Shown: positions 13,123 to 49,818 of the stretch, one piece after another
How positions within the stretch are numbered: the first letter of the stretch is position 1
Layout of the letters: every line of letters starts with the position of its first letter
IMG/VR virus record: IMGVR_UViG_3300031993_000069
DNA: 64,000 bases
Reading direction: 5' to 3' (one strand)
Origin: a virus
Translations under genes and position numbers: made by a program
The notes under the pieces: model-generated
Told to the model about the DNA's origin: nothing
The model's database searches: none
Seen by the model: only the letters and a program-made list of their open reading frames with translations

Positions 13123-13125
13123 AAT

Positions 13126-13820: not shown

Positions 13821-13861
13821 TTAGTCCTCATCGAAAATGTCATTGAAAAAAACTAGACATT

Positions 13862-13952: not shown

Positions 13953-13957
13953 TCTAT

Positions 13958-14034
13958 GCCCCGGTAACCGAATTGGCATAGGTACTAGACTTAGAATCTA
14001 GGTTCTGTGGGTTCAAGTCCCACTCGGGGTACCA
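13958..14034 (+). tRNA. class I (77 nt) tRNA with anticodon TAG (a Leu anticodon) and short variable loop
   Basis: Acceptor GCCCCGG/TCGGGGT (two G·U), anticodon stem CTAGA/TCTAG with loop CTTAGAA, 4-nt variable loop, T-loop GGTTCAAGTCC, A73, CCA. Confidence 0.55.
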
Positions 14035-14037
14035 TAT

Positions 14038-14415
14038 GGGCTCGTACTGGTTTCGATTGGTATTTGATGCTTATGACTACAGCAAGCTGATAACTTACTA
14101 TCAAACAAAAACAAACGACAAAACAAACTTTATGGCACACCTTGCCAACAACCAAATGGTTGCTGCTCGCGCCTAGTTCGCGAGAATGGTGATTGAGCTA
14201 GATAAGGTCGAATTTAGTTCTCTATTAATCAGACCTCGATGTTTATATCTAAGTAACTCCATATAAATGTTTAAATAAAGAGTAGACAACTGCTAGTATC
14301 GGATCGAAGGACTTGAGGTTCGCCGATAAAAAGAATATTTCTCAGGTTAAAGCTGTAATTAACGTTGTGGGGGTTTGGTATCAAGACAGGAGTTCGATTC
14401 TCCTCGGGTCCACCA
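14038..14415 (+). ncRNA. ssrA: tmRNA (transfer-messenger RNA)
   Basis: The 5' end GGGCTCGTACTGGTTTCGATTGG resembles the canonical tmRNA 5' end GGGGCUGAUUCUGGAUUCGAC. The 3' end AGGAGTTCGATTCTCCTCGGGTCCACCA pairs with the 5' acceptor and has G3·U70 and A73 (Ala identity). Length 378 nt. The internal frame ...NNQMVAARA-TAG is a candidate tag ORF. Confidence 0.75.
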
Positions 14416-14419
14416 TAAT

Positions 14420-14506
14420 GGGCGAGTGGCGTAACTGGTAGCCGCAATGGTCTAAGAAGCCATTGACCGAAAGGTCGTAGGGGTTCAAGTCCCCTCTCGC
14501 CCACCA
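14420..14506 (+). tRNA. tRNA-Leu(AAG), class II, A34
   Basis: Acceptor GGGCGAG/CTCGCCC, anticodon stem ATGGT/GCCAT with loop CTAAGAA, long variable arm TGACCGAAAGGTC, A73, CCA. Confidence 0.6.
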
Positions 14507-14561
14507 GAGTTATCTTTAATAATATTGTATAATATATTAGATATTGAAAGGAATTTATCTT

Positions 14562-14894
14562 ATGTATAGTTTACAAGAATTAATTGAACATGGATATGTC
14601 GATAGTATTACAACTGATGGAACACATCTTGGTGATGGTTATACTATTGTTGTTAAACTAAGCAGATATTCTATTGGTAAGATTACAATTAATGTTGGTA
14701 TTGATGAATACTTAGATGATGCTGTTACGCTTATTAATGGTATTATTGATATTCAAGAAAGCTTAAATAAAGAAGCTAAACCGGAAGAAAAGCCAACTAT
14801 TAGACATGTAACTGATCCAGATGAAATAAAGGAAATACTTTCTGGAACAGCAATTAAAGACACAAAAATTGAACCAGAGGATTATGCGGAATAA
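14562..14894 (+). CDS. hypothetical protein (110 aa)
   Basis: ATG behind promoter TGTATAATAT (14525) and RBS GAAAGGAA. Confidence 0.55.
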   Translation: MYSLQELIEHGYVDSITTDGTHLGDGYTIVVKLSRYSIGKITINVGIDEYLDDAVTLINGIIDIQESLNKEAKPEEKPTIRHVTDPDEIKEILSGTAIKDTKIEPEDYAE

Positions 14895-15073
14895 TGTATC
14901 AAATTATTAAAGACGATAAATATTATCTATATAATGATATAGGCGAAGAATTAATGACAATTACCTTCGACAATTCATTACCAGGAGACCAAGTAGTTAT
15001 TACTACACAGGATGAAGTTTATGCTGGTCCAATAAAATTTGTTACTTTTTCTGGAGATATTCCAAAAGAGTAG
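14894..15073 (+). CDS. small hypothetical protein (59 aa)
   Basis: ATG overlaps the upstream stop (ATAATG). Coding-like composition. Confidence 0.35.
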   Translation: MYQIIKDDKYYLYNDIGEELMTITFDNSLPGDQVVITTQDEVYAGPIKFVTFSGDIPKE

Positions 15074-15089
15074 CTTGTATATTATTAAT

Positions 15090-15186
15090 AGGGGCTTAGT
15101 GTAACGGCAGCACAACGGTCTTCAAAACCGCAAAGCGGGGGCCTCCAAAACCCCAGGTGCGGGTTCGAATCCTGCAGCCCCTGCCA
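15090..15186 (+). tRNA. Trp-like opal-suppressor tRNA, anticodon TCA, with an unusual 25-nt extra arm
   Basis: Acceptor AGGGGCT/AGCCCCT, G73, CCA. The D-arm and anticodon stem ACGGT/ACCGC are nearly identical to tRNA-Trp(CCA) at 8744, but the loop is CTTCAAA. A 25-nt insertion AAAGCGGGGGCCTCCAAAACCCCAG between the anticodon and T arms forms a hairpin. Own promoter TTGTATATTATTAAT sits immediately upstream. Confidence 0.7.
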
Positions 15187-15252
15187 TATAGAGCCTGTAC
15201 TTATTTCTATCACAAACCTTGAAATTTGCACGCAGTAGTCAGGCCATTTATT

Positions 15253-15438
15253 TTTATGAAATTTAAGTATAGAATTATTTGGGTTAATACAGTTAAAGGA
15301 AAACAAGAATATGTTGATATCGATGACCAGCATATTGTATTGTTTGTCGCTAAGAAAAAAGTTAGCGATGGAATGCAAGGAGTCATCATTCAAGTTTCTG
15401 GTGATCCATCTATGACTGACCCAGATGATGCTAGCTGA
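15253..15438 (+). CDS. hypothetical protein (61 aa)
   Basis: ORF downstream of motif A. Confidence 0.3.
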   Translation, partial: FMKFKYRIIWVNTVKGKQEYVDIDDQHIVLFVAKKKVSDGMQGVIIQVSGDPSMTDPDDAS

Positions 15439-15504
15439 CCGGCTATTGATGCGAATGCTTCTGAAGCTGAAAATAAAATAATTTAAAAAAATTAAAAAAA
15501 ACTA

Positions 15505-15534
15505 TTTACAAAAAATAAAAAAGTATTGTATAAT
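15505..15534 (+). promoter_or_regulatory. sigma70-like promoter
   Basis: TTTACA-N16-TGTATAATAAT. Confidence 0.6.
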
Positions 15535-15539
15535 AATAT

Positions 15540-16180
15540 TGTGAGTGTTAAGCAAGCACTCCAAAAGTGTTCTTTGAAAAATTTTAATTGGCACCTCGAT
15601 GAAGACATCTTGCACGATGGTCGAGGCTCGGCTCTAAGATGATGATAACTGGTGGGATACTGCTGGGTAAGTTGAAACTTCCAAAGTGATGAAGAAGTAA
15701 ACCTATTTAATTAGGATTGAGTCGATGGCGCAATTTGTTGCAGCGATTTAGATGAAAACACATATGCGGGTCCGACAAGAAGCTCTGGCCGTAAGGTCAT
15801 CTCACCTGTGGTATTAAGCCTGAGAAACTTAATGCCCGGTAACTCAAAGGAAGGACGCGACTTGATGTCAAGAAATTGACTATAACTGGTAATGTGTTTG
15901 TACAAGTAGCCGTATGTCGTACTACAAAGCTTTAACAGGATATTTATTAAATACTTTGCTGAAGCTCGGTGAAAGTTGATAGGTAAAGGTCCTATCTGTG
16001 GAAGTCGTAAGACCATTGGAGAAGTTATAGGGTAGCTCCCTGTGACTCAGCCTCCCGTGAGCATCCATTAATAAAGTCAAGCAATAAGGGTTGTATGGTG
16101 AAGACCGGAAATTAAAATTTTTTAAAGAGCACTTAAAAGTATTGCTAAATTAAGTAGACTTAAAAAGTCAGAAGGAGAAA
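15540..16180 (+). ncRNA. unidentified ~640-nt ORF-free structured RNA candidate
   Basis: Lies between a strong promoter and a small ORF. GC-enriched relative to the genome, with no ORF above 60 aa on the + strand. No RNase P P4 motif (GGAAAGUCC) seen. Confidence 0.3.
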
Positions 16181-16184
16181 AAGC

Positions 16185-16274
16185 ATGTTAAACTTAGTTA
16201 CTGTTAACGTTAGACCTACAGCAACAGCCAAACCAGCGTTGGTAAGTTTTGATATGCTCATGACCTCTGATAGA
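16185..16274 (+). CDS. small peptide (29 aa) candidate
   Basis: RBS AAGGAGAAAAAGC then ATG; followed by a perfect terminator. Confidence 0.25.
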
Positions 16275-16302
16275 TAAGTTAACTTAAAAACTTAACTAAG
16301 AT

Positions 16303-16335
16303 ACCGCAGTTGTGATGAGCAGCTGCGGTTTTTTT
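16303..16335 (+). terminator. rho-independent terminator
   Basis: CCGCAGTTGTGATGAGCAGCTGCGG followed by TTTTTTT. Confidence 0.85.
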
Positions 16336-16506
16336 AAGAAAAAATAACTAGCAATGTAAAACTCATAAGAGAGACGTGACGAAACCAAGGACTTCTGTGC
16401 CTTGGTCCCAAAAGTCTAAGGGATGAAATGAAGCCAGCAGTGCACAAAAAACTTGTTGCCTGATAAAAAAAGAGGCTGGTCAGGCAGAAGAAGAACGAAA
16501 GCTAGT

Positions 16507-16590
16507 TAATTATATGGGCCGATAGTTTAATTGGGAAAATACCCGCCCTGCAAGCGGGAGTTAGGGGTTCAAATCCCCACGTGTCCACCA
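16507..16590 (+). pseudogene. tRNA-like element (Ala-TGC-like anticodon arm, T-arm and CCA) with a non-pairing acceptor stem
   Basis: CCCGC-CCTGCAA-GCGGG anticodon-like arm, GGGGTTCAAATCCCC T-arm and a 3' CCA. The 5' GGGCCGA does not pair with the 3' CGTGTCC. Confidence 0.3.
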
Positions 16591-16595
16591 TTTAT

Positions 16596-16671
16596 GGGGG
16601 TGTAGCTCATCTGGGAGAGCACTTGATTAGCATTCAAGAGGTAGCGAGTTCGATCCTCGTCACTTCCACCA
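16596..16671 (+). tRNA. tRNA-Ala(AGC), A34
   Basis: Acceptor GGGGGTG/CACTTCC with G3·U70 and A73. Anticodon stem CTTGA/TCAAG with loop TTAGCAT. CCA. Confidence 0.6.
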
Positions 16672-16735
16672 GACAGAACCTGTGCTTATTTCTAACGTTA
16701 AATTTGGGATTTAAAAAGTAGCAGCCAGGTCAATT

Positions 16736-16811
16736 GCCGCCTTAGCTCAACTGGCAGAGCAACCGCCTTGTAAGCGGTAGGTTACTGGTTCGATTCCGGT
16801 AGGCGGCACCA
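16736..16811 (+). tRNA. tRNA-Thr(TGT)
   Basis: Acceptor GCCGCCT/AGGCGGC, loop CTTGTAA, CCA. Confidence 0.8.
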
Positions 16812-16815
16812 CTTT

Positions 16816-16892
16816 GGGGGTGTAGCTCAATTGGGAGAGCGCTCGCCTTGCAAGCGAGGGGTTGCGGGTTCAAGTCCCGTCACGTTCCACCA
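16816..16892 (+). tRNA. tRNA-Ala(TGC) with a 1-nt bulge in the 3' acceptor strand
   Basis: Acceptor GGGGGTG with G3·U70, anticodon stem CTCGC/GCGAG with loop CTTGCAA. The 3' strand CACGTTCC carries one extra nt. CCA. Confidence 0.6.
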
Positions 16893-17049
16893 CTAAAATG
16901 TAAGCCTATACTTATTTCTCCTCCTAAATTGTTGGGGGCCTTAGTTAGGCAATCAAAAAATTCATGCCACGGAAGGAAAACCGTATAAACCCTTACAGCT
17001 TCGTTCTTAGCCAGACGTAGACTAAGATAAAGTTAAGCTGATGTAATTT

Positions 17050-17126
17050 CGGGAGTTGGCTCAGCTTGGTAGAGCACTTGATTTGGGATCAAGGGGTCAA
17101 GGGTTCGAATCCCTTACTCCCGACCA
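17050..17126 (+). tRNA. tRNA-Pro(TGG)
   Basis: Acceptor CGGGAGT/ACTCCCG, loop TTTGGGA, CCA. Confidence 0.8.
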
Positions 17127-17251
17127 TTAGAGAACCTGTACTTATTTCTTAGCTTTGGGAGCCGCTGTTTGTTGGTTCGAGTCCAGCCTTCCCGACCATT
17201 ATCGGGAAGTAGGCAAATTGGTAAAGCCGGCGTTTATTAGTCAGGTCATAT

Positions 17252-17327
17252 GCGCTTTTAGCTCAGTTGGGAGAGCGTCTGCTTGACGTGCAGAAGGTCG
17301 TAGGTTCGAGCCCTGCAAGGCGCACCA
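17252..17327 (+). tRNA. tRNA-Val(GAC)
   Basis: Acceptor GCGCTTT/AAGGCGC, anticodon stem TCTGC/GCAGA with loop TTGACGT, CCA. Confidence 0.75.
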
Positions 17328-17331
17328 TTAT

Positions 17332-17408
17332 GCTCCTCTAGCCCAACTGGCAGAGGCAATGAGCTCAAACCTCATTCAGTATCGGTTCGAATCCGATGGG
17401 GAGTACCA
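17332..17408 (+). tRNA. class I (77 nt) tRNA with anticodon CAA (a Leu anticodon) and short variable loop
   Basis: Acceptor GCTCCTC/GGGGAGT, anticodon stem ATGAG/CTCAT with loop CTCAAAC, 5-nt variable loop, A73, CCA. Confidence 0.5.
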
Positions 17409-17427
17409 AAAAATTATTAAAAAACTG

Positions 17428-17456
17428 TTTACAACGCAGAATAAATGTTGTATAAT
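17428..17456 (+). promoter_or_regulatory. sigma70-like promoter
   Basis: TTTACA-N14-TTGTATAAT. Confidence 0.55.
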
Positions 17457-17566
17457 TATGAATGTAAGGTCGCGATGTGTGAGCATTAAACTATCGGCCC
17501 CTCACCTCCGAAAACCGTAGGCCGAGTCGGACCTTATATATAGATTGTTCAAAAAGGAGAAGAGTT

Positions 17567-17647
17567 ATGATGACAATGAACAAGAAAAACATCAAGAATA
17601 GAAAAACTAGAAAAACTAGTTCATTTAGTCATGGCTTAATTCAGTAA
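17567..17647 (+). CDS. small basic peptide (26 aa) candidate
   Basis: RBS AAAAGGAGAAGAG then ATGATG; followed by a terminator hairpin and T-run at ~17678-17712. Confidence 0.25.
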   Translation: MMTMNKKNIKNRKTRKTSSFSHGLIQ

Positions 17648-17772
17648 AACACTAATAATACGTTAACGTAAGATAGAGTGCCGAGTGGTTAAGCCGCCCG
17701 GCATTTTTTCTGGGATTACGTTAGCGCAACGGACAGGGACGACATAAGAGCGTGCTTTTCCAGAAATCACAT

Positions 17773-17849
17773 ACCTCCGTAGCTCAACTGGACAGAGCAT
17801 CGGTCTTCTAAACCGCAGGTTGGGCGTTCGAGTCGCCCCGGGGGTGCCA
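17773..17849 (+). tRNA. tRNA-Arg(TCT)
   Basis: Acceptor ACCTCCG/CGGGGGT, loop CTTCTAA, CCA. Confidence 0.75.
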
Positions 17850-17853
17850 AATC

Positions 17854-17928
17854 GCGTCCATAGCCAAGTGGTATGGCAATCGGCTTTTAACCGATGTACC
17901 GAGGGTTCGAATCCTTCTGGGCGCACCA
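17854..17928 (+). tRNA. tRNA-Lys(TTT)
   Basis: Acceptor GCGTCCA/TGGGCGC, loop CTTTTAA, CCA. Confidence 0.8.
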
Positions 17929-17933
17929 CATAT

Positions 17934-18010
17934 GCCTCCATAGCAAAATTGGCTAATGCACCTGACTCTTAATCAGGGGATTCTGGGTTCGAGTCCCAGT
18001 GGGGGTACCA
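17934..18010 (+). tRNA. tRNA-Lys(CTT)
   Basis: Acceptor GCCTCCA/TGGGGGT, loop CTCTTAA, CCA. Confidence 0.75.
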
Positions 18011-18012
18011 AT

Positions 18013-18088
18013 GCGCCGGTAGCTCAGCCGGTAGAGCACGTGACTTTTAATCACGGGGTCCAGAGTTCGAACCTCTGCCGGCGCACCA
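18013..18088 (+). tRNA. tRNA-Lys(TTT), second copy
   Basis: Acceptor GCGCCGG/CCGGCGC, loop CTTTTAA, CCA. Confidence 0.75.
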
Positions 18089-18090
18089 AT

Positions 18091-18165
18091 GCTGATTTAG
18101 TTTAATTGGTAAAATAATTCTCTCGTAAAGAATAGTAGTGTGTTCGAAACATACAATCAGCACCA
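18091..18165 (+). tRNA. tRNA-Thr(CGT), AT-rich
   Basis: Acceptor GCTGATT/AATCAGC, anticodon stem ATTCT/AGAAT with loop CTCGTAA, T-arm GTGTGTTCGAAACATAC, CCA. Confidence 0.7.
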
Positions 18166-18261
18166 TTAGAGCCTATGCTTATTTCTAGCTCAATGAGAGC
18201 GTTTGACATTTAATCAAAAGGTATAGCTAGGCCATTCTTGATAAATCTACTGTATAATATA

Positions 18262-18500
18262 ATATGGTTGCGATGAATTTTGCAGTTTCGACCCATGTGC
18301 ACAGAAATAGAAACTGCCTATAGGTTAATGTTGACCATAGTTATTGGTGCAGAGTACGTAATCTGCGAGGTAAACTCCGGTGTATGTTCATTCGCCGACC
18401 TATGAAGCTAAAAAATGAACGGAGATAGCGTATAAAAATGATTTATGAAAAGTACGTAACGCCCATGAGGAGAGGCCTCATGCTTCAATAAAAAACAAAA
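18262..18500 (+). ncRNA. unidentified structured RNA candidate (~240 nt) behind the 18250 promoter
   Basis: ORF-free. Ends in the hairpin CATGAGG-AGAG-GCCTCATG immediately before the next tRNA. Confidence 0.3.
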
Positions 18501-18503
18501 CTT

Positions 18504-18579
18504 GCCGGCTTAGCTCATCTGGTAGAGCAATTCACTAGTAATGAATAGGTGGTCAGTTCGAGTCTGGCAGCCGGCACCA
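18504..18579 (+). tRNA. tRNA-Thr(AGT), A34
   Basis: Acceptor GCCGGCT/AGCCGGC, anticodon stem ATTCA/TGAAT with loop CTAGTAA, CCA. Confidence 0.6.
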
Positions 18580-26667: not shown

Positions 26668-26883
26668 AATTTAATTATCGTATAATATTTTAGAACTTCT
26701 ATGTAGGGCAATTTTATTCGCTAAATTAATGTGACGACGTAAGTTGTCATTACATAGAAAAGGGCACAACCACGGTAACGTGGCGTCGCAAAACTAAAGG
26801 GCCTTGGGAGAGGCAGCCAGTTGCTTCTGTGAAACCGTTATTCATGGAAGTTTTTTATTTATATGGACAAGGAGAACACACAC

Positions 26884-27537
26884 ATGAAATTAAGAAACAA
26901 ATTAGCAGCTATCACAGCTGCAGCAATGTTAGCATTTGCCGGCTTAGGCTTTGCTGCTTGGACATTCACAAATTCTGTCGAAGTTGAGAAAGAAGCATCT
27001 TCAATTGTTACAGTTGCAGTTGAAACAAATGCAGTTAAGCTTTATACAGATTCTGGTTTAACGGATGAACTAGAAGCGAGTGAACACATTTATTTAATTG
27101 CAGATGCTCCATCAACAGGAGCTGGACATTTAGCAGGAAAAGGATTACATTGGTCTCTTTCTGCTGATAATTCTACAGATCCTATTACTGCACTTTATGT
27201 TGTTCCACAAATTAAGTATAATGCTGAAGACCTTAAGGATATTACAACTGTCAACTCCACAATTACTGCTACTTCTGATGCATTAGTTGTTGAAGATGTA
27301 AATTATACCTATTTCAGTATTGCTGCTTTAGCTATTGATAATGGTGCTTCAACTGTCAATTTAGGCAGTGCAACAACAGATACAGTAATTGCATCATCTG
27401 CTTATACTTTAAATCTTCCAACACTTGAATATACTTATGTACCAACAAATGTTGCTGAAGTTACTGCTATGCATACAGCATTAGCTGCTGCAACTATTAC
27501 ATTCAGCATTTCAAGTGAAATTTCAAGCGTTGCTTAA
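26884..27537 (+). CDS. TasA/camelysin-like secreted protein with SipW-cognate signal peptide
   Basis: The signal peptide ends ...LGFAAWTFTNSVEV, which resembles the TasA/CalY motif GGTWAAFND. Ser/Thr/Ala-rich mature region. ATG at 26884 behind RBS AAGGAGAACA. Upstream motif GCTAAATTAAT at 26720. Confidence 0.6.
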   Translation: MKLRNKLAAITAAAMLAFAGLGFAAWTFTNSVEVEKEASSIVTVAVETNAVKLYTDSGLTDELEASEHIYLIADAPSTGAGHLAGKGLHWSLSADNSTDPITALYVVPQIKYNAEDLKDITTVNSTITATSDALVVEDVNYTYFSIAALAIDNGASTVNLGSATTDTVIASSAYTLNLPTLEYTYVPTNVAEVTAMHTALAAATITFSISSEISSVA

Positions 27538-27553
27538 TTAAGAGGTTTAATTT

Positions 27554-28360
27554 ATGACATCAATTACGATTATTACAATAGTCGTAGTTGCACTCTTAAC
27601 TGTATTAATCTTTGGTTTAGCTTGGCTAGGTTATAGCTCTTGTTTAAAAAGCTATAAAATGGAGGTTGACCAAGGAAAACATGATGCTGAAATATTCAAA
27701 GAGTATCATTCTAAAAAGAAAAATAAAGGAGGACTAATTGGACTTATTGGTTCATACTTAGCCCTCCTCGCTTTATCTGGGCTATTTGTAACGGGAATAG
27801 TCTATAAAGCAAATGGTGAAAATTTTACTATTAATAATCAAACAGCCTTAGTTATTAAATCAGGGTCTATGTCTGAATATTATAGCGAAGAACTTGCTAA
27901 TAAATACTCAATTTATCCAGAATATCACTTTAATGTTGGAGATATTTGTGTATTTGAAAAGGTATCGGAAGATACTGAATTAGTTGAGGGTGAAGTCTAC
28001 GGCTATAAATACAAGAATATTATTATCACTCATAGACTTATTGGGTCTTTTGGAGATACGTATGAGTTTAGAGGAGATAATAACCCAGTTTCTGATGGCC
28101 TTTTAATTAAAAAAGCTAGTATTTTATATCATTATACTGGCAATAAAGTACCAGGAATTGGTGCCTTTGTTTTATATGCACAATCTTATTTTGGTATTTG
28201 GTCATTAGTTGGTATTATTGGGGTAATGACTAGCTCTGAGGTTGTTTATCATAAGATAGATAAGATAAATAAAGAAAGAGATAAAAAGCTTGATCCAAAG
28301 TTTATTCCGGAACCACCAAAGCTAAAAGAAAGAAAGCGAGGTAAAAAACATGAAAAATAA
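27554..28360 (+). CDS. ER/archaeal-type signal peptidase I (S26B, SipW-like)
   Basis: Box B VIKSGSMSEYY, box D IIITHRLI (catalytic His) and box E RGDNNPVSDG (GDNN, with no SPase-I Lys box) are ER/SipW-type hallmarks. N- and C-terminal TM segments. Confidence 0.75.
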   Translation: MTSITIITIVVVALLTVLIFGLAWLGYSSCLKSYKMEVDQGKHDAEIFKEYHSKKKNKGGLIGLIGSYLALLALSGLFVTGIVYKANGENFTINNQTALVIKSGSMSEYYSEELANKYSIYPEYHFNVGDICVFEKVSEDTELVEGEVYGYKYKNIIITHRLIGSFGDTYEFRGDNNPVSDGLLIKKASILYHYTGNKVPGIGAFVLYAQSYFGIWSLVGIIGVMTSSEVVYHKIDKINKERDKKLDPKFIPEPPKLKERKRGKKHEK

Positions 28361-29336
28361 ATTTTTACTCGCATTAATTAGCTTATTTGCTGTAACAGCT
28401 TTGATTGGAACAACCTATTCAGCTTGGACATTTACTAATGACCCAAGTATAACTAATAATGTTCAAATTGAAGTGCCTACTTGGAATTTCTTAACAGACC
28501 CCGGTTTTGCTAAACTTGATAATGTTAGAAATGTAACAAACTTAGTAGCTTCAAAAGAAGAGTCTATCACAGTAGGAAGTTCTGAGGCGCTTAGATTAAC
28601 TAGCACAACTGGAACATCTACAAAAGACCATACTGTAAATATTAATTTAGACCGAGACTATTATCTTTCTGAAATTCAATTCTTTAAGTTTGAGTTTGAT
28701 TATTATCATAGATATAAGAGAGAACAATATAATAAAGGTTTCCCAACAGTTCAATTTACAATTAATAATTCTACTTTGGGAACAAATCAAGGTGGAACTG
28801 ATACTTGCACAAGCAAGTCTCCATTTGTTGCTACGGCTATCGATGAAGATTGGTGGCATTTAGAATATTATATATTCGCTCATATGCCAACAATTGCCAA
28901 AGGTAAAGATACTCCAATTGCTACAACTAAAAAGATAAATGGCGTTAGAATCACTGATAGAACTATGTATGACTACGCTGGCACAACAGCTTATGTAGTT
29001 ATAGATAATATGCAATTTAGTGCTGAACCAACTTCAAGATTAGGTATCTTCAATAGATGGACAAGTGATGTTGTTGGAAATTTATTCTGGTTTAAAGTTG
29101 CTTGGTCTAGCGAAATACATTCTGTTAAGCTTTATTCAAGTGATACAAGCATAGCTGTTCCAGAATTCGATCCAACCGATACAGTTTCTACAAGCTATCC
29201 ATTCCCAAATGGAAGCCCATTCTACTTTGAATTATTACAGCCAGGAACTGTTAGATTTACTGCTGTATTAGAAATTGGTGATAATCATGATATTTATACC
29301 ATTATTTCTGATAATTTCACGGTAAATGCAGCTTAA
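28350..29336 (+). CDS. TasA/camelysin-like secreted protein with SipW-cognate signal peptide (paralog of 26884)
   Basis: Signal peptide ...LIGTTYSAWTFTNDPS; 328 aa. Confidence 0.6.
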   Translation: MKNKFLLALISLFAVTALIGTTYSAWTFTNDPSITNNVQIEVPTWNFLTDPGFAKLDNVRNVTNLVASKEESITVGSSEALRLTSTTGTSTKDHTVNINLDRDYYLSEIQFFKFEFDYYHRYKREQYNKGFPTVQFTINNSTLGTNQGGTDTCTSKSPFVATAIDEDWWHLEYYIFAHMPTIAKGKDTPIATTKKINGVRITDRTMYDYAGTTAYVVIDNMQFSAEPTSRLGIFNRWTSDVVGNLFWFKVAWSSEIHSVKLYSSDTSIAVPEFDPTDTVSTSYPFPNGSPFYFELLQPGTVRFTAVLEIGDNHDIYTIISDNFTVNAA

Positions 29337-29351
29337 AATATCAAAATTTAT

Positions 29352-30170
29352 TGTATAGTAATATATAGTTCCCCTGTGTCGGGGGTCCTGGTGCTAAAAA
29401 GTGGTTGTCATTGCCGGCCCGGCTGCCTCGGTAAGTCGCGGTTATCGATATAACCCGGTGTCCTTGCGGACTATTTCCAGGAATAACGAGCGCGAGCCCA
29501 CCTAGTCGGAGAGTCAGACCGCAACACCTGACGTTAAATCAATGTTCCTCCGTGAATAGGCAGTGGGAGAAGAGTAGGATACAAATGGCAGCGTGCCCGC
29601 AGAAGAAACTATTTCAATAATTTACAACGCTTAGGCGTTTAAATAGAGGATGACTAGTAACGCAAAGGAGTTCGACCTCGATAAAAAATGAATCCTTAGG
29701 TCAAGCTGAAATGACATAATTCAGCAGAATAAACTGTGTAAATTCGTGGCGTGAAAGAACGAGGCTGAAGATGAGCTGAGGCCGTGACGCTGGCCCACGT
29801 TAAAAAGAGAAGGAACGGGACTCTCATTAAATTGAGATTAGAGCCTACATGGTAGGCGGTAAGATGAAAATATAGGACGATGCCTGTCAGCATTGAGTAA
29901 ATGGGTAAGACTCTTGGAATAGACCTTAGATAAAGCCTTTAGAGTAGCGAAACCATAACACCTATATGGCCCTACAGCGGTCCCAGACGGACTCCACTTA
30001 ACCCCCCTCATTTATTATATCCCGAAGATGTAAACATCATCATTACTTGTAAGGCCTAGGTAATAGGCAAAGAAAAGGGAGAATGGGGCAGCTCATAAGA
30101 CACGTCCGAAGATGACGTTAAAGGTCTAATGAAGCTTAACTCGCAAAATAGTTAAGTTTTTATTTTTCTT
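29352..30170 (+). ncRNA. giant structured ncRNA candidate (~0.8 kb, GC-enriched, ORF-free)
   Basis: Follows promoter TTGTATAGTAATAT (29342) and opens with a GC hairpin CCCCTGTGTCGGGGG. About 48% GC against ~30% in the flanks. No ORF above 65 aa on either strand. Confidence 0.45.
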
Positions 30171-30289
30171 AAAAAATGATACGCTAAATTTATTACTACG
30201 GACTTTCCAAAAAAGTATCGTATAATATTTTAACGGATTCGCGAATTGGTATCCATAGCAATTCAGTCCGAAAGAGCAAGGAGAAAGAT

Positions 30290-30643
30290 ATGGAAAGAGA
30301 CACATTAGAACAATTCAGTAATAATCTTGACGAAAGTCGTAAAGCTGAATTAAAAGAACTAAAAAACTTACAAGAAAAGAAACTCAATAATGCAGAAGCA
30401 TTAATTGAAAAAAAGAAAATCTTAGCAAGTGAAGCGAAAAACATCGCAGAAACTAGCCAAATTCCTCTAACGCATATTTATAAATGTATTAGAGAGGAAG
30501 CTAAGGAAGGCAGAGTAAAGCTTGATTGGGGCATTTATAATATGAGCTCCAAATGCATTGAACTCACAAAAGAAGCCTTAATTAAAGATGGCTATTCAGT
30601 CGAAGTAAATAAAGACGAAAACTTATTAAAGATTAGTTGGTAA
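30290..30643 (+). CDS. hypothetical coiled-coil protein (117 aa)
   Basis: Promoter TCGTATAATATTT (30221), RBS AAGGAGAAAG. Confidence 0.55.
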   Translation: MERDTLEQFSNNLDESRKAELKELKNLQEKKLNNAEALIEKKKILASEAKNIAETSQIPLTHIYKCIREEAKEGRVKLDWGIYNMSSKCIELTKEALIKDGYSVEVNKDENLLKISW

Positions 30644-30649
30644 TATCGG

Positions 30650-32830
30650 AGTAATCCGTTATTATATATCTTCCTGAAAATCTTTGGACAAAAGCCAAAG
30701 CGAATGATTGCATAAGTTGTATCGAGTGCAATCACGAGAAAGGGTACGCTGGGATGCTGGGAAGTAAAATATAGTGCACCAGTAATTGTCGGTGGCAATA
30801 TAAAACCGTTCGACGGAGATACAACTCTTGATCGATAAAGGCCTTGTTGATGGGTGAGGCTAGTGACCTCTTCAGGTAGAAATGAATCAACAGTATTAGA
30901 GCTTAAAAAGCACTCATAGAGGAAAACACCGAAATGTTCCAAAGGGGCTGACGAAATCCTAAGCGTCTATAAATAAAGTTTAGTGGAGCTTTATGAACGA
31001 GTGGTTGATTACCCAACGGTCCGCTTTACGAAGCGTTAAGAGGTTGGTAGGGGTTAAAGTTGTCTACCTATAATCACAAAACAACTGCTTCCTTGGCTAA
31101 TTTAGTCCGGTAGGAAGCTTATCAAAAGAGAGGTTGGGCATTCCTCCCCACATTGTGGTATTCCTTAATTGGATTTCTTCGGTAATTTATTACCGCTTCC
31201 TTGCCCGGCGGGCTAGGCTACCGCCCTCCTTCTGTTACCTAGCTAATGCAGAACGGTATTTTCTTAGGATATACTTCAGGTATGTCCTCTGATGCTAATT
31301 ACATCTGAATAAGATGCGATTATATATCAACATGTTGATTGCCAGTAAGCCATATGACTAGACATGAGCTTGCTCTTGAAAAGGCGCAACGGGGTTTGAT
31401 GAGAAAGTGACCACAACTAGTTATTAAAATCATCCGAGGATGCTATAAATACCTCGTTAAAAACTAATAGTTAAATAACCGTTCTCGATACGCCTCTTAA
31501 CAATGCGCAACAATCGGGCCTTCGTAATTCATAACAAAACCATGAGTATGGACGCATACGATGATTGGCACAAAAGGAATTACAAATCTGGCCGACCCAA
31601 TGGATAGTTTGAGGTGCGACTCCTCAATTGGTCTCAAAAAGCCCATGCAGCAGTAACCAGGGCTAATACTAAGACGTCAAAACGTGAAAGAGTCTGCTGC
31701 AAGAAGGAAAACTATAAACCTCCGGTTGGTGCCCGGCTAAACTGTAAGAAACAAGCTGCCTTTAAACAGTATAAAGATTAGGGGTGCGGAACTATCGCTG
31801 ATGTTAGCCTGTAGGAAAAGCGTCATAATGAGAGGCCAAAGGTTGTTGTGGTAAGAGCATGAACCGCGTTAAGCACAAGCGGGGAACAGCAGTAATGAAA
31901 CCGTGGTTTGGAATGACCTCATAACTAACCTAAAAATCCACAGAAATCGTTTCTGGACGTACAAACCAGATGGTAACCTTGAAATAGGTGCGAGAAGGAA
32001 AACTTAGCCAAACCCGTATTTAGCTTAATGTGGAAGCTTTATTCCAGCTTTGTTAGTGTGCTTTGTTGATACGTTGTTATCTAACAATGGCGGTTCGTCC
32101 GCAGGAGCAGCATTAAGAAATTCGTCTAAAACTATTCTATACATAATTTATTTATAGATTATGTAGGGGGAACCAAATACCGAGCCCATGAATCATAAAG
32201 ATCGGCGTCGAAGCAACGAAAGCTGCCATGTTGTCCGTGCACGGCGAAAGAAGGAACGGTCTAACGCAGTTGTCTAACGGATTGATTCACCGTTATAGAT
32301 TCTCACACAGAGAGGAGTACTGCTAAAGTAATGGTCAACATAAGGTTTGCGGTGATTATCTATGATAATTATAAAAACCTCGGTGAACTAGTTGACAGAG
32401 GCACGAAAAACCGCAATTTTCAAAAGAGAAGGAGCTTAATTGTTCCAATCTATCGTTTCCACCACCTGGTACTGATTATCGTGGAAGTCTTCTATGACTA
32501 TTTGTGGACGACCTAGCGCCTATATGGCTGACACTGTAAGACTTAGCATCTTATAAGGCTAGAGAAAGCCGGGGAAACTCCAGGACGGGTCTTGTTATTA
32601 CCCTGCTAAGAGGCGAAAGCAATATAAAAACACCCGAGTAAATCTAAGAACCTGCAATTTGGGGTTGAGCCCAGTTGAGAATTGAATAGGTAGTGCATTC
32701 ACTCAACAATGCTTATTAGCTTATGGCTCGAGGTTATCTCGCGCGACTAATAAGAAGAGCCCATGACGATAGGGAGCCGAATGGCATGCTATGTCCAGCA
32801 CTACATTTTTTTATATTTAAAATACTGTAT
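30650..32830 (+). ncRNA. second giant ORF-free structured RNA region (~2.2 kb), possibly several ncRNAs
   Basis: 2.2 kb with only two marginal ORFs (61 and 116 aa, the latter antisense and overlapping). GC-enriched, with many long-range complementary segments. Bounded downstream by the 32826 promoter. Confidence 0.4.
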
Positions 32831-32892
32831 AATATAATAGTTCAAAAGTCTCAAAAGGACGATTTGTAGCCCAAAAGGCGAAGGAGAATTAT

Positions 32893-33759
32893 ATGTCACG
32901 ATTTTCAGGAAAATGTGATTTATTTGATCACATCTCAGGACGTGGCGGCTGATATGACAAAGACGGAAATCCCGTTAAGTTTGGTCAAGAAGGCGTTGGC
33001 GTCTATTATTCAGATGAAATGCAAGATTTTATTGCATTCAAAAAAGAAACTGGCGGGGTAATCCATCAACATAAAAAAGTCAAGGTTGATGAGTGGAATC
33101 AAGATGAAGTAGCTAAACATTGCAAGTTTTTTAAAGTTATTCCTCATGAAGAAATTATTAAAGATAAGCGCTATAATGGTGGGGAGAGAAAACAAACAAC
33201 TTATACCTATAGCTATTATGGTAAAGAATATACATTAAAAGAGCTTAATAAACATGGTGTTTGGGTAGAAATTGATATTCATTTTAATACAATTTTAGAC
33301 TTAATTCCTTATTATCCATACTTAGTTGCTTGTGCAGCTTATAGTGATGGAAAAGCTTATGTTGTTATTTCACAAGAAAGCTATGTTACAGAAGAAAGAG
33401 ATGAACATATTGAACATGGATATTTCAGTGAATTCTGGGAACATTATGCTAAGGAATTACAAGACCATTATAGAGAAATTGTCTTAACTTATTTCAATCC
33501 AGAAGGAAGAGAAAGAGTTAAAGAAATTACTTTTGATGAAAATGGATTAGGTTATGTAGGTGAGCCTATTGATTATAACTTTGATCCAGATTGGCGTTGG
33601 GAAGATGGAAAGCGCCATGACCATTGGACTTCCCCTAAATTAGTTGATGCTGAAAAAGGCTGTATCAAAATTAGTGAGGAAGACCAACGACACTATATTG
33701 GAAATAAAGCATTAGTCTATTATGTGACCACAAAAAATGCTAAATTATATTTGGGGTAG
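32893..33759 (+). CDS. hypothetical protein (~288 aa) with in-frame TGA at 32950
   Basis: ATG at 32893 with RBS AAGGAGAATTAT. Frame-continuous with track ORF 33019..33759 across one TGA (GRGGWYDKDG). Confidence 0.6.
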
Positions 33760-44038: not shown

Positions 44039-45325
44039 ATGGCAGGCGCAAGATATTTTTATGGCACTGGTTCATCAGATTATATAGGCGAGCAAGCTGC
44101 AAAAGTTGCAAGCAGCAGTGACTATACGACTCCTTTAAGCAATACAGTAATTAATAGCTATTTTTCTGATACTAGTGCTAATTATTCATATATAACCCCA
44201 AGAGAAGACGCTGGTAATACTTATGGTTTATGGGGAAACTATGACTACTATAAAATAGCTGCAAATAAATTTTATACAAAAACTAATAATGTAGAGACAG
44301 TCTTAAAGTTTGTTGATAGAAGGTCTGCACCGCTTTTATCTAAAGCAACTAGAGATACAAACTGGGGCCGTTGTCAAGCACCCTTTAGTTATTATGCTTT
44401 TGCTCATAATTTTGCGGGTTATACTGCAAAACTTTATTGGGATAGCACAAATAATAGAATTCAAGTAAATGTTTATAGCGATGATAATTATTCATCATTA
44501 AATACATCCTTTACCATCAATGCTTATGGCGTATTCATCATGATTGCCGGCGGCGGTGGCGGTGGAGGGGGCGGAGACGCCCAGTACTGAGGCCAAGGAA
44601 GTCCCGGCGGCGGTGGCGGCGGAGGCGGTGGAACTGCCCTCGTCTATCTTGATCTTAGATGATTAAATAATTACAGTTCTGGTTGTTATGCCAGAATTAA
44701 GGTTGGAACTGGCGGTTCAGGGGGCTCTGGCGGGGCTGGATTCCAATCAGGTAGTGATGGAACTTCTACCGATATAGATATTTGTAGCTCTTCTGGTACT
44801 TCTATGTATTATATTACTGCTTATCCTGGTAAAGGCGGAGCAGGACATGCTTGGGACGTAGCTGCTGATTCAGCTGGCGGCAAGGGTGGAACAGTAGACT
44901 GAGGACATCAACAAAGTCAATGGGCATCAATGTCAACAGGAATTAAAGTATTAAGTTCTGCTACTGGCGGAAAAGGTGGAGATGGCTGTCGTGGTAGCAG
45001 TGGTTATTCTGGCAGTTATATTTCTTCAGGAAGCTGAGGATTGCCATTCTCAAATTCTTGGGGTAAAACAGATACATTTACATACGGTAGCTCTACTTGC
45101 TATATGGGCGGTGGAGGCTCAAACAATAACCAAGGTGGAGGAGGTGGAGGTTGCGGAGCTGGCTATAAAGACTCGCAATATCCAACTGCCACATCAGGTT
45201 GCGGAATGGGCGGACGCGGTGGTGGTGAAAGCCAAGCCGGATTATCTGGCGGAAGTGGTTTCTGTGGAATATTTTATGGATATGTTGCAGGAATTGATTC
45301 TGGCTGCGATCCAAAAACTGTTTAA
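44039..45325 (+). CDS. glycine-rich fibre/structural protein (~428 aa) containing 4 in-frame TGA (Trp) codons
   Basis: Track ORFs 44039..44590 and 45041..45325 are in the same frame. Gly runs (GGGGGGGGG) and TGAs at ~44588, 44659, 44899 and 45036 sit in Gly/Ser-rich context. Confidence 0.55.
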
Positions 45326-46479: not shown

Positions 46480-49400
46480 ATGCCTGAATATAAACCAAAT
46501 TCCTCATTCTTATCCGAAAAAGAAGTAGTTCAGACCGCCAAAGATGTTGTTGCAGAAGTTCAAGTTGCAGACGTTCAAGTCAATGGCGTTTCTACTGTCG
46601 AAGAGGGTATTTCACATATTAATTTAAAAACAATTCATGGTCAATCTATCGTAGGCACTGGTAATATCGACGTTGTTGGTCCGCAAGGTCCAACAGGAGC
46701 TAAAGGAGCTGATGGTAAAGTAGGACCAACAGGTGCTACTGGAGCCAAAGGTGAAGACGGAGCCACTGGACCAACCGGTCCACAAGGCCCAGCCGGAGAA
46801 GCTGGCGCAGCTGGAAGCACTGGTCCAACTGGACCTCAAGGTCCCGCTGGTGAAGCTGGCTCTAAGGGCGAAGATGGAGCTTTAGGTCCTACAGGACCTC
46901 AAGGTCCTGCTGGAGCAGCTGGAAGTGAAGGCCCAATCGGCCCTACCGGTCCTCAAGGCGAGAAAGGTGACAATGGTAATGACGGAGCCGTTGGTCCAAC
47001 CGGACCTCAAGGCGAAACAGGCGCTACTGGCGCCATTGGACCAACCGGTGAAACCGGTCCTACTGGTCCTAAAGGTGAAGATGGAACAAGCTTCCGTATT
47101 TTAGCTAACGCTGAAGCATGTACTCAATTAGGTGATGGCTATGTAGATTATCGTGGCCATTTAATGGTTCTTACTAGCTTAGATCCAAGAAGCTTTACAG
47201 ATGCTGGAGAAATTCGTGGTCCTCAAGGTCCAACCGGTGAGGCTGGAGATAGAGGCCCAACTGGAGAAGCTGGCGAACAAGGACCTGTCGGACCTACTGG
47301 TCCGCAAGGCGAAGCCGGTGTTTCAGGAAGTGTAGGACCTACCGGTCCTGCGGGCGTAAATGGAAGTCAAGGACCTGTCGGCCCAACTGGTGAAGTTGGT
47401 CCTACTGGTGCAACTGGCCCAACCGGTAAAGATGGTAAAGATGGCTTAACCACAAGCGTAAGCGTAAATGGTAATACTTATACCCAAGTTGAAGGTTTAA
47501 TTACTTTACCAAATTATCCTGTCGTTCCAACAAATGTCAGTGCATTTACAAATGATGCTGGCTACATTACAAGCGTTTCTTGGACAGACATTCAAGGTGC
47601 TCCTACTGTTGGACAAGGCGTTTTAACTATTCAAAAAAATAATACTACAATTGATACATTCAGTGCCAATGCGACTGGAAATAAGACAATTAATATTTCA
47701 GTCCCAACAAAGGTTTCTGACTTAACAAATGATAGTAAATATGTTACAAAAGATGTAAATAACTTAACTAATTATACTGTTACTGGTGATTTAGCTGCAG
47801 TTGCTTTAAGCGGTGATTATTCAGATTTAACTAATAAGCCAAACTTCGCTACTGTCGCTTTAACCGGAAATTATAATGATTTAATTGGAAGACCTACCAT
47901 TCCAACTATTCCAGTCACAGACGTTCAAGTTGGCGGTGTTTCTGTATTAGACGGAACTATTGCTAAGATTAATAGTGTTATGGGTCCAACTGGTCCTGCT
48001 GGAAGCGCTGGACCTGCCGGTCCAACAGGCCCTGCGGGTATAGGAACTCAAGGACCAACCGGTCCTGCAGGAAGTAATGGTGCTACTGGTCCTACTGGTC
48101 CTGCCGGAACTGGAAGCCAAGGTCCTACAGGCGCAGCTGGTCCAACAGGCGCTCCTGGACAAATCGGTCCAACCGGACCTGCTGGAAGCGGAAGTCAAGG
48201 ACCTACCGGTGCGCAAGGGCCTACCGGCGATATGGGACCTACTGGTCCTGCTGGTTCTAATGGTAATGATGGTATTACTCCACATATCGGAACCAATGGT
48301 CACTGGTATATTGGTCAAACTGATACTGGCATTGTTGCTGAAGGTACTAATGGCGAAAATGGAAGTAAGATTTATTTTGGACAAGGCGTACCACAAGCAG
48401 GCTTTGGTTTAAATAATGACGTTTATATTGATTTATTCACTTATAATATTTATAATAAAGGTAATGGTTCTTGGATTTTCTCAGGAAATATCTTAGGTGA
48501 AACTGGTCCTATCGGACCTACTGGTGCTAGAGGTTTAGCAGGTCCTACTGGCGAACATGGTGCAGATGGTGCAGATGGACCACAAGGTCCTACTGGTCCA
48601 AAAGGCGCTGATGGACAAAGCCTTAATGTTAAAGGAACTGTTCCAAACTATGCTACATTAATGCAAATTACTGCTGCTGATGGAGACTACTATATTGTTG
48701 AAGTAGATGAAGAGCATGGTAATTTACGTGGTACATTATATATTTATAAAGGCAATCAATGGAAATACTTAGGACAATTTAGAGGTGCTGAGGGTCCTAC
48801 TGGTCATGTTGGCCCAGTCGGTCCAACTGGCCCACAAGGTCCTACTGGAAGAGTTGGTCCTACCGGAAAGATTGGCCCAACAGGTTTAACAGGTCCTACT
48901 GGTAAAACTGGCTCTGTTGGCCCAACAGGTTTAACAGGTCCTACTGGTAAAGACGGTCCTAAAGGTCCAACTGGTGATATTGGTCCTGTTGGTCCTACTG
49001 GAAACCCTGGTTCTACTGGCCCTACTGGAGAGGCCGGACCTACTGGACCTCAAGGTCCAACTGGTCCTAAAGGCGAGGATGGTAGATCAGTAAATATTAA
49101 ACCATCTGCTGCCGATTGCACAACTGTTGGTGATGCTTATATTGATACAACTAATAACCACTTAATGTTATTAATTGCTATTAATCCAAATGAATGAAGA
49201 GACTTAGGACAATTTGCTATTATCGGTCCAACAGGTCCTCAAGGACCTATTGGTCCTACTGGATTACAAGGTCCTATCGGTCCTTCCGGTTTAAGAGGTC
49301 CAACAGGTGCTTCTGGTTTATTAGGACCTACCGGTAAAACAGGTCCGACTGGCTCCGCTGGTTCTATGGGTCCTACAGGCCCATCTGGCGTTGGTAGCCA

Positions 49401-49818
49401 AGGCCCAACAGGTGCTACTGGCCCTACAGGACCACAAGGCTTAATTGGTCCTACTGGTCCATCAGTTAGCTCTGCTGTAACCTTATATGATGGCGATGGT
49501 ATGACAAATGAAATGGCTGTCAGTGGCGTAACTCCAGCCGCTCTTACTTTCACAAATTTAAAGAATTATGGATTAATTGTCATGCTAGGCTATAAGAATG
49601 GTCACAGCAATGGTAATGGTATTATTATATTTTCTCCTGCTGCTCTTGATGCTTGGGGAAATTACACAGTTGCTTTAGGTGCTGATAACTGGCAATATAA
49701 TCTTAAATTATGGAAACCAGGTGAAGGCTCTGAAAAGATAACTTGGGCAACACAATCAGATTATGGCAGTAGCTATGAATTTACTGTTCATAAAGTTTAT
49801 GGAATTGGGAGAGTATAA
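46480..49818 (+). CDS. collagen-like tail-fibre protein (~1112 aa) spanning track ORFs 46480..49197 and 49366..49818 via in-frame TGA at 49195
   Basis: Junction motif [25 protein letters not shown] followed by hundreds of G-P-T-G/G-x-x-G triplets in several blocks. Upstream motif TTTTTGCTAAATTATATGATTAG. Confidence 0.7.

Follow-up and report, generated by a model that had tools for sequence, protein, structure and literature searches.

The subject of this analysis is a stretch of virus DNA of 64,000 nucleotides (IMG/VR record IMGVR_UViG_3300031993_000069; hereafter the window), which derives from a large phage, has a GC content of 37% and carries all of its genes on the + strand. Positions 30644-32815 of the + strand form a block of about 2.2 kb without protein-coding genes, for which an earlier note, made from the letters alone, had offered a group II intron RNA lacking its intron-encoded protein, multiple ornate non-coding RNAs (ncRNAs) or a pseudogenised region. 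Our comparison with related phages indicates that the block is built from at least eight separately conserved modules of folded RNA, none with a catalogued match, and that the locus is a genuine non-coding unit, both conserved and structured. It would enlarge the small class of ornate phage RNAs by several new families, in a modular, shuffled and punctuated layout that is unusual. We consider it probable that the block is the non-coding body of a single phage transcription unit, running from promoter to terminator, whose independently folded RNA modules act in trans.

The absence of coding sequence holds up as the earlier note described it. Between the stop codon of the upstream gene (ORF117, an open reading frame (ORF) of 117 aa) and the promoter at 32826, no stop-free stretch of at least 90 codons was found on either strand with genetic codes 11 or 4, except for an antisense stretch of 116 or 124 codons (30592..30942, 116 aa) that overlaps the upstream gene; the marginal sense ORF of 61 aa (32331..32516) is also where it was said to be. 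Several genetic codes were tried, since some genes of the window carry in-frame TGA. Reading TAG as sense opens stretches of 127-151 codons in the block, and reading TAA as sense likewise opens stretches, in both cases without homology support. Pfam and PHROG searches with the ten longest stop-free stretches of the block returned no match. The GC content is elevated, as had been noted, at 0.40-0.45 (about 0.42) compared with 0.30-0.35 (about 0.33) in the flanking genes, which places the block at the level of the window's tRNA arrays.

To compare the block between phages, we gathered about 12 distinct related metagenome contigs of large phages (numbered with the prefix L, up to 273 kb long) via the 288-aa protein encoded downstream, via DNA-pattern scans and via a 71-aa ORF of the relatives' arrays. 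The 288-aa protein has ∼300 homologs, and nine contigs that are 99.8% identical to the window were uninformative. In blastn searches, 78% of the block could be aligned to at least one non-identical relative, and nhmmer profiles split it into the following independently conserved segments:

30671..30892, + strand: module E, in two genomes, 88% identical to L038 11090-11324 (nhmmer E 1e-53); two compensatory pairs; minimum free energy (MFE) z -2.35
30892..31123, + strand: module A, ∼230 nt with eight helices, seven distinct homologs; the module that changes place
31123..31300, + strand: module F, two genomes plus a partial copy, 91% identical to L036 1400-1570; three compensatory pairs; MFE z -2.75
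31329..31440, + strand: module B1, seven homologs; pseudoknotted core at 31341-31434
31441..31586, + strand: module Bv, two genomes, the sole homolog being L046 2646-2782; abiF-motif-like hairpin at 31484-31519
31587..31700, + strand: module B2, five homologs; 98% paired versus 32-45% in slid controls; four compensatory pairs
31697..31941, + strand: module C, four homologs; 94% paired versus 38-44% in slid controls; 12 compensatory pairs
31942..32141, + strand: segment X, no nhmmer or blastn partner beyond the near-identical contigs; may be a lineage-specific module or a spacer
32142..32420, + strand: module G, four homologs (L036, L050, L051); 97.6% paired versus 31-39% in slid controls; five compensatory pairs
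32447..32536, + strand: module Y, three genomes, with homologs in L050 and L051; almost invariant, so that it holds no covariation information
32536..32805, + strand: module D, nine close and four distant homologs (the distant ones found by covariance model R1); core at 32536-32689

The alignments comprise 3-13 sequences from one phage clade, and the numbers of double changes given here are raw counts. For module A, we derived the fold with RNAalifold from one subfamily (L029, L038, L040 and L033), turned it into a covariance model, and then aligned the other subfamily (the window, L036 and L039; ∼70% identical) to that model, a procedure that avoids circularity. The window copy scored 158.6 bits against the model built solely from the other subfamily. 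Across the module, 97.7% of cells were paired and 15 of 45 pairs had changed on both sides, with one 7-bp helix swapped at five positions, while slid controls reached at most 44% pairing and four such pairs. For B1, the structure was drawn by eye from seven sequences and consists of a hairpin, a pseudoknot formed between its loop and a strand further downstream, and a third helix. Here 97.3% of cells formed standard pairs and 9 of 21 pairs had changed on both sides, which none of 500 shuffles matched; sliding the pairing partners by 1-3 columns left at most 40% pairing and at most one covarying pair.

In the core of D, 92.5% of cells were paired and 18 of 25 pairs had changed on both sides across 13 sequences, in an alignment that was fitted to the model. 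The 3′ domain of D is closed by GTAGTGC (32690-32696) with GCACTAC (32798-32804), which in L038 are replaced by CAAAGTT and AACTTTG. A loop-loop pairing CUUAG:CUAAG in D has become UCUAG:CUAGA in both L050 and L051, a change that represents one event and makes a kissing-loop contact suggestive. Modules C, G and B2, together with a module H of the neighbouring unit described below, were 93-98% paired compared with 31-50% in the slid controls, and B2 carries a hairpin that resembles a T-loop (GAGG-UGCGACU-CCUC). The + strand was taken as the transcribed one because G-U pairs appear there (they would be C-A on the other strand) and because all genes lie on this strand. Overall, covariation supports at least seven uncatalogued families of structured RNA (A, B1, B2, C, D, G and H), with E and F as candidates known from two sequences each. 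Of the possibilities raised in the earlier note, multiple ornate ncRNAs is thus the one that agrees with these data, which comprise separately conserved modules, covarying helices and a B1 pseudoknot supported by covariation.

These comparisons also bear on whether the block, lying in a hyperplastic region, could consist of decayed protein genes or of filler without function, which we regard as scarcely credible. Such filler would fit the absence of any homolog of X and of H2 (a segment of the neighbouring unit), and it would fit L026, the closest relative without the block, in which the flanking protein is 67% identical and the site is occupied by Thg1 and a 402-aa gene. The earlier note had named absence from close relatives as a sign of recent junk; that absence is real in L026, but ∼12 other relatives keep the modules under structural constraint. 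Their modules are 70-93% identical at the nucleotide level and retain compensatory pairing in phages whose flanking protein is only 50-65% identical. Decayed genes were rejected as well, since in pairwise alignments with relatives each of the three codon positions takes a similar share of the mismatches and frame-breaking indels (1, 2 and 4 nt) are common, and since Pfam and PHROG homology is absent. Module E shows no codon periodicity. In the neighbouring 288-aa gene, used as a control, mismatches by codon position were 87/54/136 and 85/60/165. The proposal of a pseudogenised region therefore fails.

We then considered how the block is transcribed. A motif scan of the window with the phage promoter consensus tTGTATAATat found 23 copies on the + strand and 9 on the - strand. 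Consensus promoters precede genes, tRNA clusters, the ROOL RNA (15527) and the neighbouring non-coding unit, which we call block 1 (29352); + strand examples lie at 7564, 8950, 15527, 17449, 29352 and 32826. In the RNA units (tRNA clusters, ROOL and block 1), a stable hairpin starts a few bases past the promoter consensus. Within the block itself, the scan found no consensus promoter (of the TGTATAAT type) between 30227 and 32825, in agreement with the earlier statement that a strong internal promoter is lacking. The features that delimit the unit are:

30219..30226, + strand: promoter-like box CGTATAAT, judged against the consensus tTGTATAATat; the sole candidate promoter upstream of the block; forms repeat D5 with 32819-32835
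30290..30643, + strand: ORF117, 117 aa, at the 5′ end of the transcription unit; a long N-terminal helix and a small alpha/beta domain
32806..32812, + strand: run of seven T immediately past D's closing stem, where the transcription unit probably ends
32826..32833, + strand: TGTATAAT promoter of the next gene, found by motif scan
32893..33759, + strand: next gene, encoding the 288-aa protein, read with one in-frame TGA

Since the consensus is absent from 30227-32825, the flanking boxes being those at 30219 and 32826, the simplest reading is that the modules are co-transcribed with ORF117 and that the transcript ends at the closing stem of D and the T-run (32798-32812). Relatives share this arrangement: in every one of them D is followed by a T-run and then by the next TGTATAAT promoter, and in L038 a single promoter (10147) and a single T-run (13106) enclose A-ORF71-E-B1-B2-C-D over 3 kb. 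The 32826 promoter and its 5′ untranslated region (UTR) are conserved in relatives without the block. A generic scan for sigma-70 promoters and terminators performed no better than on shuffled sequence, and it picked up neither the AT-rich terminator at 30135-30168 nor the D stem with its T-run. The direct and inverted repeats inside the block are short ones only, corresponding to the promoter and hairpin boxes, and a repeat search found no terminal repeats of the block.

The position of the block directly after ORF117, with no promoter between them, would also suit a long structured 3′UTR that controls in cis the stability or translation of the ORF117 mRNA or the expression of the downstream gene, and a small ORF (71 aa or 122 aa) heads the unit in relatives too. 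Against this, the same modules stand behind different ORFs or, in L040, behind a promoter and leader that lead into B1 with no ORF; the terminator-like T-run and the separate conserved promoter isolate the downstream gene; and a bacterial UTR would not be expected to reach 2.2 kb with at least eight domains that covary. We therefore hold a 3′UTR to be very improbable. A riboswitch or other cis-regulatory leader was rejected on similar grounds, as the block ends in a stem and T-run that are followed by an independent, conserved promoter, and as its modules occur in other gene contexts.

The stretch 29352-30170, which the earlier note had set beside the block as likewise non-coding, proves to be the same kind of unit, judged by its layout:

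29352..30168, + strand: block 1, consisting of promoter TGTATAGT (29352-29359), a 5′ hairpin, H, H2 and an intrinsic terminator
29370-29620, + strand: module H, conserved in L036, L041 and L046; 93% paired, three compensatory pairs
29621-30128, + strand: H2, ∼510 nt, without a homolog
30135-30168, + strand: intrinsic terminator of block 1, CTTAACT-8 nt-AGTTAAG followed by TTTTTATTTTT

In L036, H lies ∼600 nt upstream of the A-F-B2-G-D modules, with a 73-aa ORF between them.

Two short hairpins stand in front of modules E and B1, where they appear to punctuate the block:

30643..30670, + strand: punctuation element 1, before E; ATATCGGA-GTAA-TCCGTTAT, then TATATATC (as RNA, AUAUCGGA-GUAA-UCCGUUAU, then UAUAUAUC); GNRA loop and one U-U mismatch; forms repeat D1 with 31303-31328
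31302..31328, + strand: punctuation element 2, before B1; CATCT-GAATA-AGATG, then GATTATATATC (as RNA, CAUCU-GAAUA-AGAUG, then GAUUAUAUAUC)

In L038 and L039, a GNRA hairpin followed by GATTATATAT, of the same type as element 2, lies upstream of B1. The fuller element of the relatives reads TAGTTAC, stem, GNRA or UUCG loop, stem and GTTTCTATA, which as RNA is UAGUUAC, a stem of 3-5 bp closed by a tetraloop, and GUUUCUAUA. Its central stem covaries (ACAGA/UCUGU, ACACG/CGUGU, ACGCA/UGCGU and ACAUC/GAUGU), and it is found either directly after a promoter or without one. The combination TGTATAATATATAG-TTAGTTAC-hairpin-GTTTCTATA occurs at module borders in L029, L033, L038, L040 and L046, whereas the window has variant hairpins only, and these are promoterless. 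Since the tetraloops are of RNA type, the hairpin should work in the transcript, and where it follows the promoter directly it would form the 5′ end of the RNA. In Firmicutes, 5′-terminal stem-loops shield RNAs from 5′-dependent RNases, and in phage polycistrons irregular hairpins serve as RNase III sites. Hairpin promoters of the N4 type were ruled out, because the loops are RNA-type GNRA or UUCG loops and a canonical promoter precedes the hairpin.

Among the relatives, modules are present or absent within a largely fixed frame. All contigs keep the collinear order B1<B2<C<G<Y<D, and D comes last throughout, while the content varies from B1-B2-G-Y-D in L051 to B1-C-D in L048 and G-Y-D in L050. 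Module A does not keep its place: in the window, L038 and L039 it precedes B1, in L029 it sits between B1 and C, and in L040 it follows B2. Module E also changes position. From this pattern we read both B1-to-D and E-A-F as strings of separately conserved modules and not as one rigid giant RNA.

The collinearity does, all the same, raise the possibility that B1-to-D (31329-32812, ∼1.5 kb; 1.2-2.3 kb in relatives) forms one giant RNA of several domains that functions as a single molecule. Such an RNA, with a conserved pseudoknot domain at its 5′ end (B1), a conserved domain at its 3′ end (D) and optional ones between them, might self-assemble, and E-A-F would then be a second RNA or a set of inserted domains. 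The window has no punctuation hairpin or promoter from B1 to D, and GOLLD too combines a conserved 3′ region with a variable 5′ region (PMC12286853). In addition, the 5′ hairpin of B1 (31328-31339, TCAA-CATG-TTGA) has a self-complementary loop (31332-31335), as a kissing-dimer site would have. The loop is palindromic in all three of its variants (CAUG, GCGC and CCGG), which has a chance of about (1/16)^3, though this was noticed post hoc; we take it as a hint of a kissing-dimer signature. On the other side, no long-range pairing was found between modules, A is inserted within the string in L029 and L040, and inner modules are lost wholesale in L048 and L050, which fits beads on a string better. 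We consider a single giant molecule possible yet doubtful, and the earlier note's heading of a very large ncRNA stays open for B1-to-D. A bolder form of the idea, by analogy with the cages of ROOL and GOLLD, is that B1-to-D is a modular RNA of 1.2-2.3 kb that self-associates via its palindromic kissing loops into an RNA-only particle. We think this unlikely. If it were true, no phage or bacterium would be known to have a larger structured RNA than B1-to-D, ribosomal and intron RNAs aside. The locus would then amount to an operon for a phage 'RNA organelle', in which module A is a mobile domain and optional domains lie between B1 and D.

Searches for known identities were largely empty. An Rfam 15 cmscan of 29000-33300 with permissive filters found no family at E<=10 except for a sub-threshold abiF-like hairpin, and at gathering thresholds the scan of the whole window gave no intron family and none for the block. 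The same scan detects ROOL elsewhere in the window at 213 bits, so the approach is effective on this sequence. Catalogued large RNAs (ROOL, GOLLD, OLE and others in Rfam 15) had no match in the block at E<=10. Mimicry of rRNA, RNase P or SRP was rejected because Rfam gave nothing, which for rRNA at E<=10 bears out the earlier note, and neither ARAGORN nor the Rfam tRNA model placed a tRNA-like element in the block.

The size of the block, its GC enrichment and its lack of ORFs are what had pointed to a degenerate group II intron, another intron or the remnant of a mobile element, an origin to which we now give almost no credence. No Rfam intron or ribozyme model matched at E<=10, and Pfam and PHROG searches of the stop-free stretches found no remnant of a reverse transcriptase, maturase or endonuclease. 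The flanking genes are complete and each has its own promoter, so that the block interrupts no gene; terminal repeats are lacking; and A and E change position, contrary to the fixed 5′-to-3′ order of intron domains. In L026, the site simply holds other genes.

The one near match, to abiF motif RNA (RF03085), lies in module Bv, where the 36-nt hairpin 31484-31519 matches the conserved loop CCUCUNAACNAUG at 34.5 bits (E 0.0013). This is below the gathering score of 37, no abiF (Abi_2) gene lies nearby, and the sole homolog, in L046, has an 18-nt insertion in the loop with which the Rfam match is gone; the assignment was therefore rejected. As a separate observation, the abiF-like loop is 78% complementary to 31026-31043 in module A (repeat I2). 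The match could be taken to mean that the modules are anti-defence decoys, mimicking host regulatory or antitoxin RNAs in the manner of an AbiF pseudo-antitoxin or a pseudo-ToxI, and their presence/absence variation and shuffling resemble those of accessory counter-defence islands. Apart from the weakness of the abiF match, however, no other module matches a known family, and known decoys are much smaller and simpler than these modules, so that we judge this role highly unlikely.

Among known systems, the block is most like ROOL (RF03087) and GOLLD, which are abundant RNAs. These are phage RNAs of as yet unknown function found beside tRNA islands (PMC12286853; PMC5737381), and they form homo-oligomers (PMC12286853). 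They share with the block a large, ornate, ORF-free and GC-enriched character in phages or prophages, pseudoknots, and a position by tRNA islands; a bona fide ROOL lies 15 kb upstream of the block in the window and ROOL also occurs inside the relatives' arrays. GOLLD is alike in that its 3′ part is conserved and its 5′ part variable (PMC12286853), and the self-complementary loop of B1 may recall the homo-oligomerisation of both RNAs. Several traits of large ornate phage ncRNAs are found in the block (ORF-free, conserved, with helices supported by covariation, a pseudoknot and nearby tRNA islands), which places it by kind and not by family homology. Unlike ROOL and GOLLD, the block shows no homology that Rfam detects at E<=10, is modular with a moving A, and belongs to a unit 2-3 times longer with a small ORF at its head.

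Two further comparisons concern its organisation. Like phage tRNA arrays and polycistronic ncRNA operons, the block gathers many structured RNAs in one orientation under shared promoters, with content that varies between relatives, and it shares its promoter type and the 5′ hairpin habit with the tRNA and ROOL units of the window. Its modules nevertheless differ from tRNAs (by ARAGORN and Rfam), being 100-280 nt long with many unrelated folds, and no processing signals of the RNase P or RNase Z type were identified in the block. The PeSL cassettes of T4-type phages, in which a repeated promoter and stem-loop flank variable segments and offer homology for recombination, mediate modular shuffling there (PMC2839356, PMC4122927). 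They differ in that the segments they flank are protein ORFs of hyperplastic regions and that they join the stem-loop of a terminator to an early promoter, whereas here the hairpin follows the promoter or stands without one, has GNRA or UUCG loops and flanks RNA modules, and recombination at these sites is presumptive.

With the available collections, the modules appear to be confined to a narrow phage clade, because pattern scans of IMG/VR and scans of GTDB were nearly empty. A blastn search with 3.6 kb against 50,697 GenBank phage records gave no match, nor did an IMG/VR search with the single protein of the downstream gene. A profile search with the downstream protein found 16 loci with 45-59% protein identity, at which the non-coding DNA could not be aligned to the block. 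Exact-pattern scans of IMG/VR returned one related contig only, plus one chance match (L031), and scans of one genome per GTDB species found no modules. In isolated phages, tblastn with a 671-aa protein of the window gave weak matches only (20-29% identity). Distant relatives, with the flanking protein 48-59% identical, have ORF-free and partly GC-enriched blocks of 1.2-2.3 kb near the same gene (L019 2812-5103, L010 8490-9982 and L018 2774-3976), and D-like elements, which only the covariance model could detect, lie at L019 3294-3388 (40.5 bits) and L018 2575-2672 (22 bits). Because of these blocks and elements, the habit of carrying such units seems to predate the recognisable modules.

A conserved ORF of 68-73 aa (MKYYVLDGE...CDRCSRFF), with a weak DUF7552 match (E 4e-4), lies inside or at the head of the relatives' arrays in L036 (804-1025), L038 (10741-10956), L039 (541-756) and L029 (6022-6234), and in L041, L045, L046, L048, L050 and L051 at about 5001-6216. 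The window lacks this ORF and has ORF117 in the corresponding place. For ORF117, a Pfam search was empty and a PDB sequence search gave no significant match, and structure comparison found its fold to resemble, weakly, small domains of the nucleic-acid-binding type. Clusters of tRNAs adjoin the relatives' arrays, and a drum-like element (L045 6637-6745, 42.8 bits; gathering score 43) and a match to the Y-RNA-like YrlA (L041 8414-8534, 36 bits; gathering score 69) were found there. The relatives' arrays therefore mix known orphan RNAs with new modules.

Several points weigh against reading the block as one unit of trans-acting RNA modules. In folding energy against dinucleotide shuffles, only E (z -2.4) and F (z -2.8) stand out, and the other modules (-1.2 to +1.4) behave like coding controls. 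The many local hairpins of the earlier note are accordingly there, including the quoted CCGGCGGGCTAGGCTACCGCCC at 31205-31226 inside F, but for the most part they fold no better than the shuffles; the evidence for structured RNA in the block is comparative, not energetic. With 3-13 sequences from one clade, many of the double changes trace to few evolutionary events, and two alignments (A10 and A7) had been fitted to the model. Homologs are lacking for segments X and H2, the punctuation hairpins of the window itself depart from the consensus of the relatives, and promoter, terminator and processing sites are assigned at the level of motifs. Finally, the analogy with ROOL and GOLLD is one of context and general character, with no Rfam match behind it.

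Taking these points into account, we propose the following course for the unit of trans-acting modules. RNA polymerase would start at the 30219 box, read through ORF117 and then 2.17 kb of RNA-only sequence, and stop at 32798-32812, as the motifs suggest. The transcript would consist of independently folding modules, E-A-F followed by B1-Bv-B2-C-X-G-Y-D, of about 100-280 nt each, with helices kept by compensatory changes. The short, highly stable GNRA or UUCG hairpins and the UAUAUAU or UUCUAUA box before the units would most likely be stabilisers of 5′ ends or marks for processing, so that the precursor may yield several stable RNAs, at least E-A-F and B1-to-D. By analogy, these products would act in trans as structural RNAs of the general ROOL/GOLLD kind, and they may work with small phage proteins such as ORF117 in the take-over of the host's RNA and translation metabolism. 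The repeated cassettes of promoter and hairpin would offer a plausible recombination route for the shuffling of modules, for instance for the wandering A.

Apart from the block, the window has other features of interest. The Rfam scan found 36 tRNAs, a tmRNA (14038-14415), ROOL (15571-16127, 213 bits) and a c-di-GMP-I riboswitch (26753-26828), with the tRNAs, tmRNA and ROOL clustered at 7350-18579. The tRNA island includes a 97-nt tRNA with anticodon UCA at 15090-15186, called tRNA-SeC by ARAGORN, and readthrough of in-frame TGA is needed for complete ORFs at 32893-33759 (one TGA), 5199-5816 (six) and 44039-45325 (four). Together, the tRNA with anticodon UCA and the TGA-bearing ORFs suggest partial recoding or suppression of TGA in a subset of genes. 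The riboswitch (52.4 bits) lies directly upstream of three genes, in a region spanning 26753-29336: two secreted-looking proteins with a common N-terminal ...AWTFTN... motif flank a 268-aa protein with SGSM and GDNN motifs like those of signal peptidase I, and Pfam had no match for any of the three. This region has the appearance of a phage module, under the control of c-di-GMP, that encodes secreted or fibre-like proteins. A further ORF-free stretch lies at the edge of the window (1-1406), with promoter boxes at 113, 1084 and 1234 and a GC content of 0.30-0.34, which is not enriched; the box at 1234 precedes a 5′ hairpin, as in the RNA units. Coding sequence reaches a GC content of 0.46-0.55 at 46800-49600 and 55200-58000, inside ORFs of 1112 aa and 1031 aa, compared with the genome mean of 0.37, and many TGA-interrupted antisense ORFs overlap these two stretches, which may encode repetitive or compositionally biased structural proteins.

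We found no description of the block's RNAs in the literature. A 2023 screen of IMG/VR reported short motifs only, of at most 151 nt, which were not compared motif by motif with the modules described here. The modules of the block would share one operon setting, near a ROOL gene, a tmRNA and a full tRNA set.

Large, intricate RNAs are rare in bacteria and phages, and ROOL, GOLLD, OLE and raiA have recently been shown to form unexpected RNA-only assemblies. What would set the present families apart from those already known is that their domains behave like cassettes that can be exchanged within a fixed frame and are punctuated by conserved hairpins. The locus would readily supply new folds for the determination of RNA structures, and it may serve as a compact natural system in which to ask what such RNAs do in infection, whether they assemble with one another and how new structured RNAs spread between phages.

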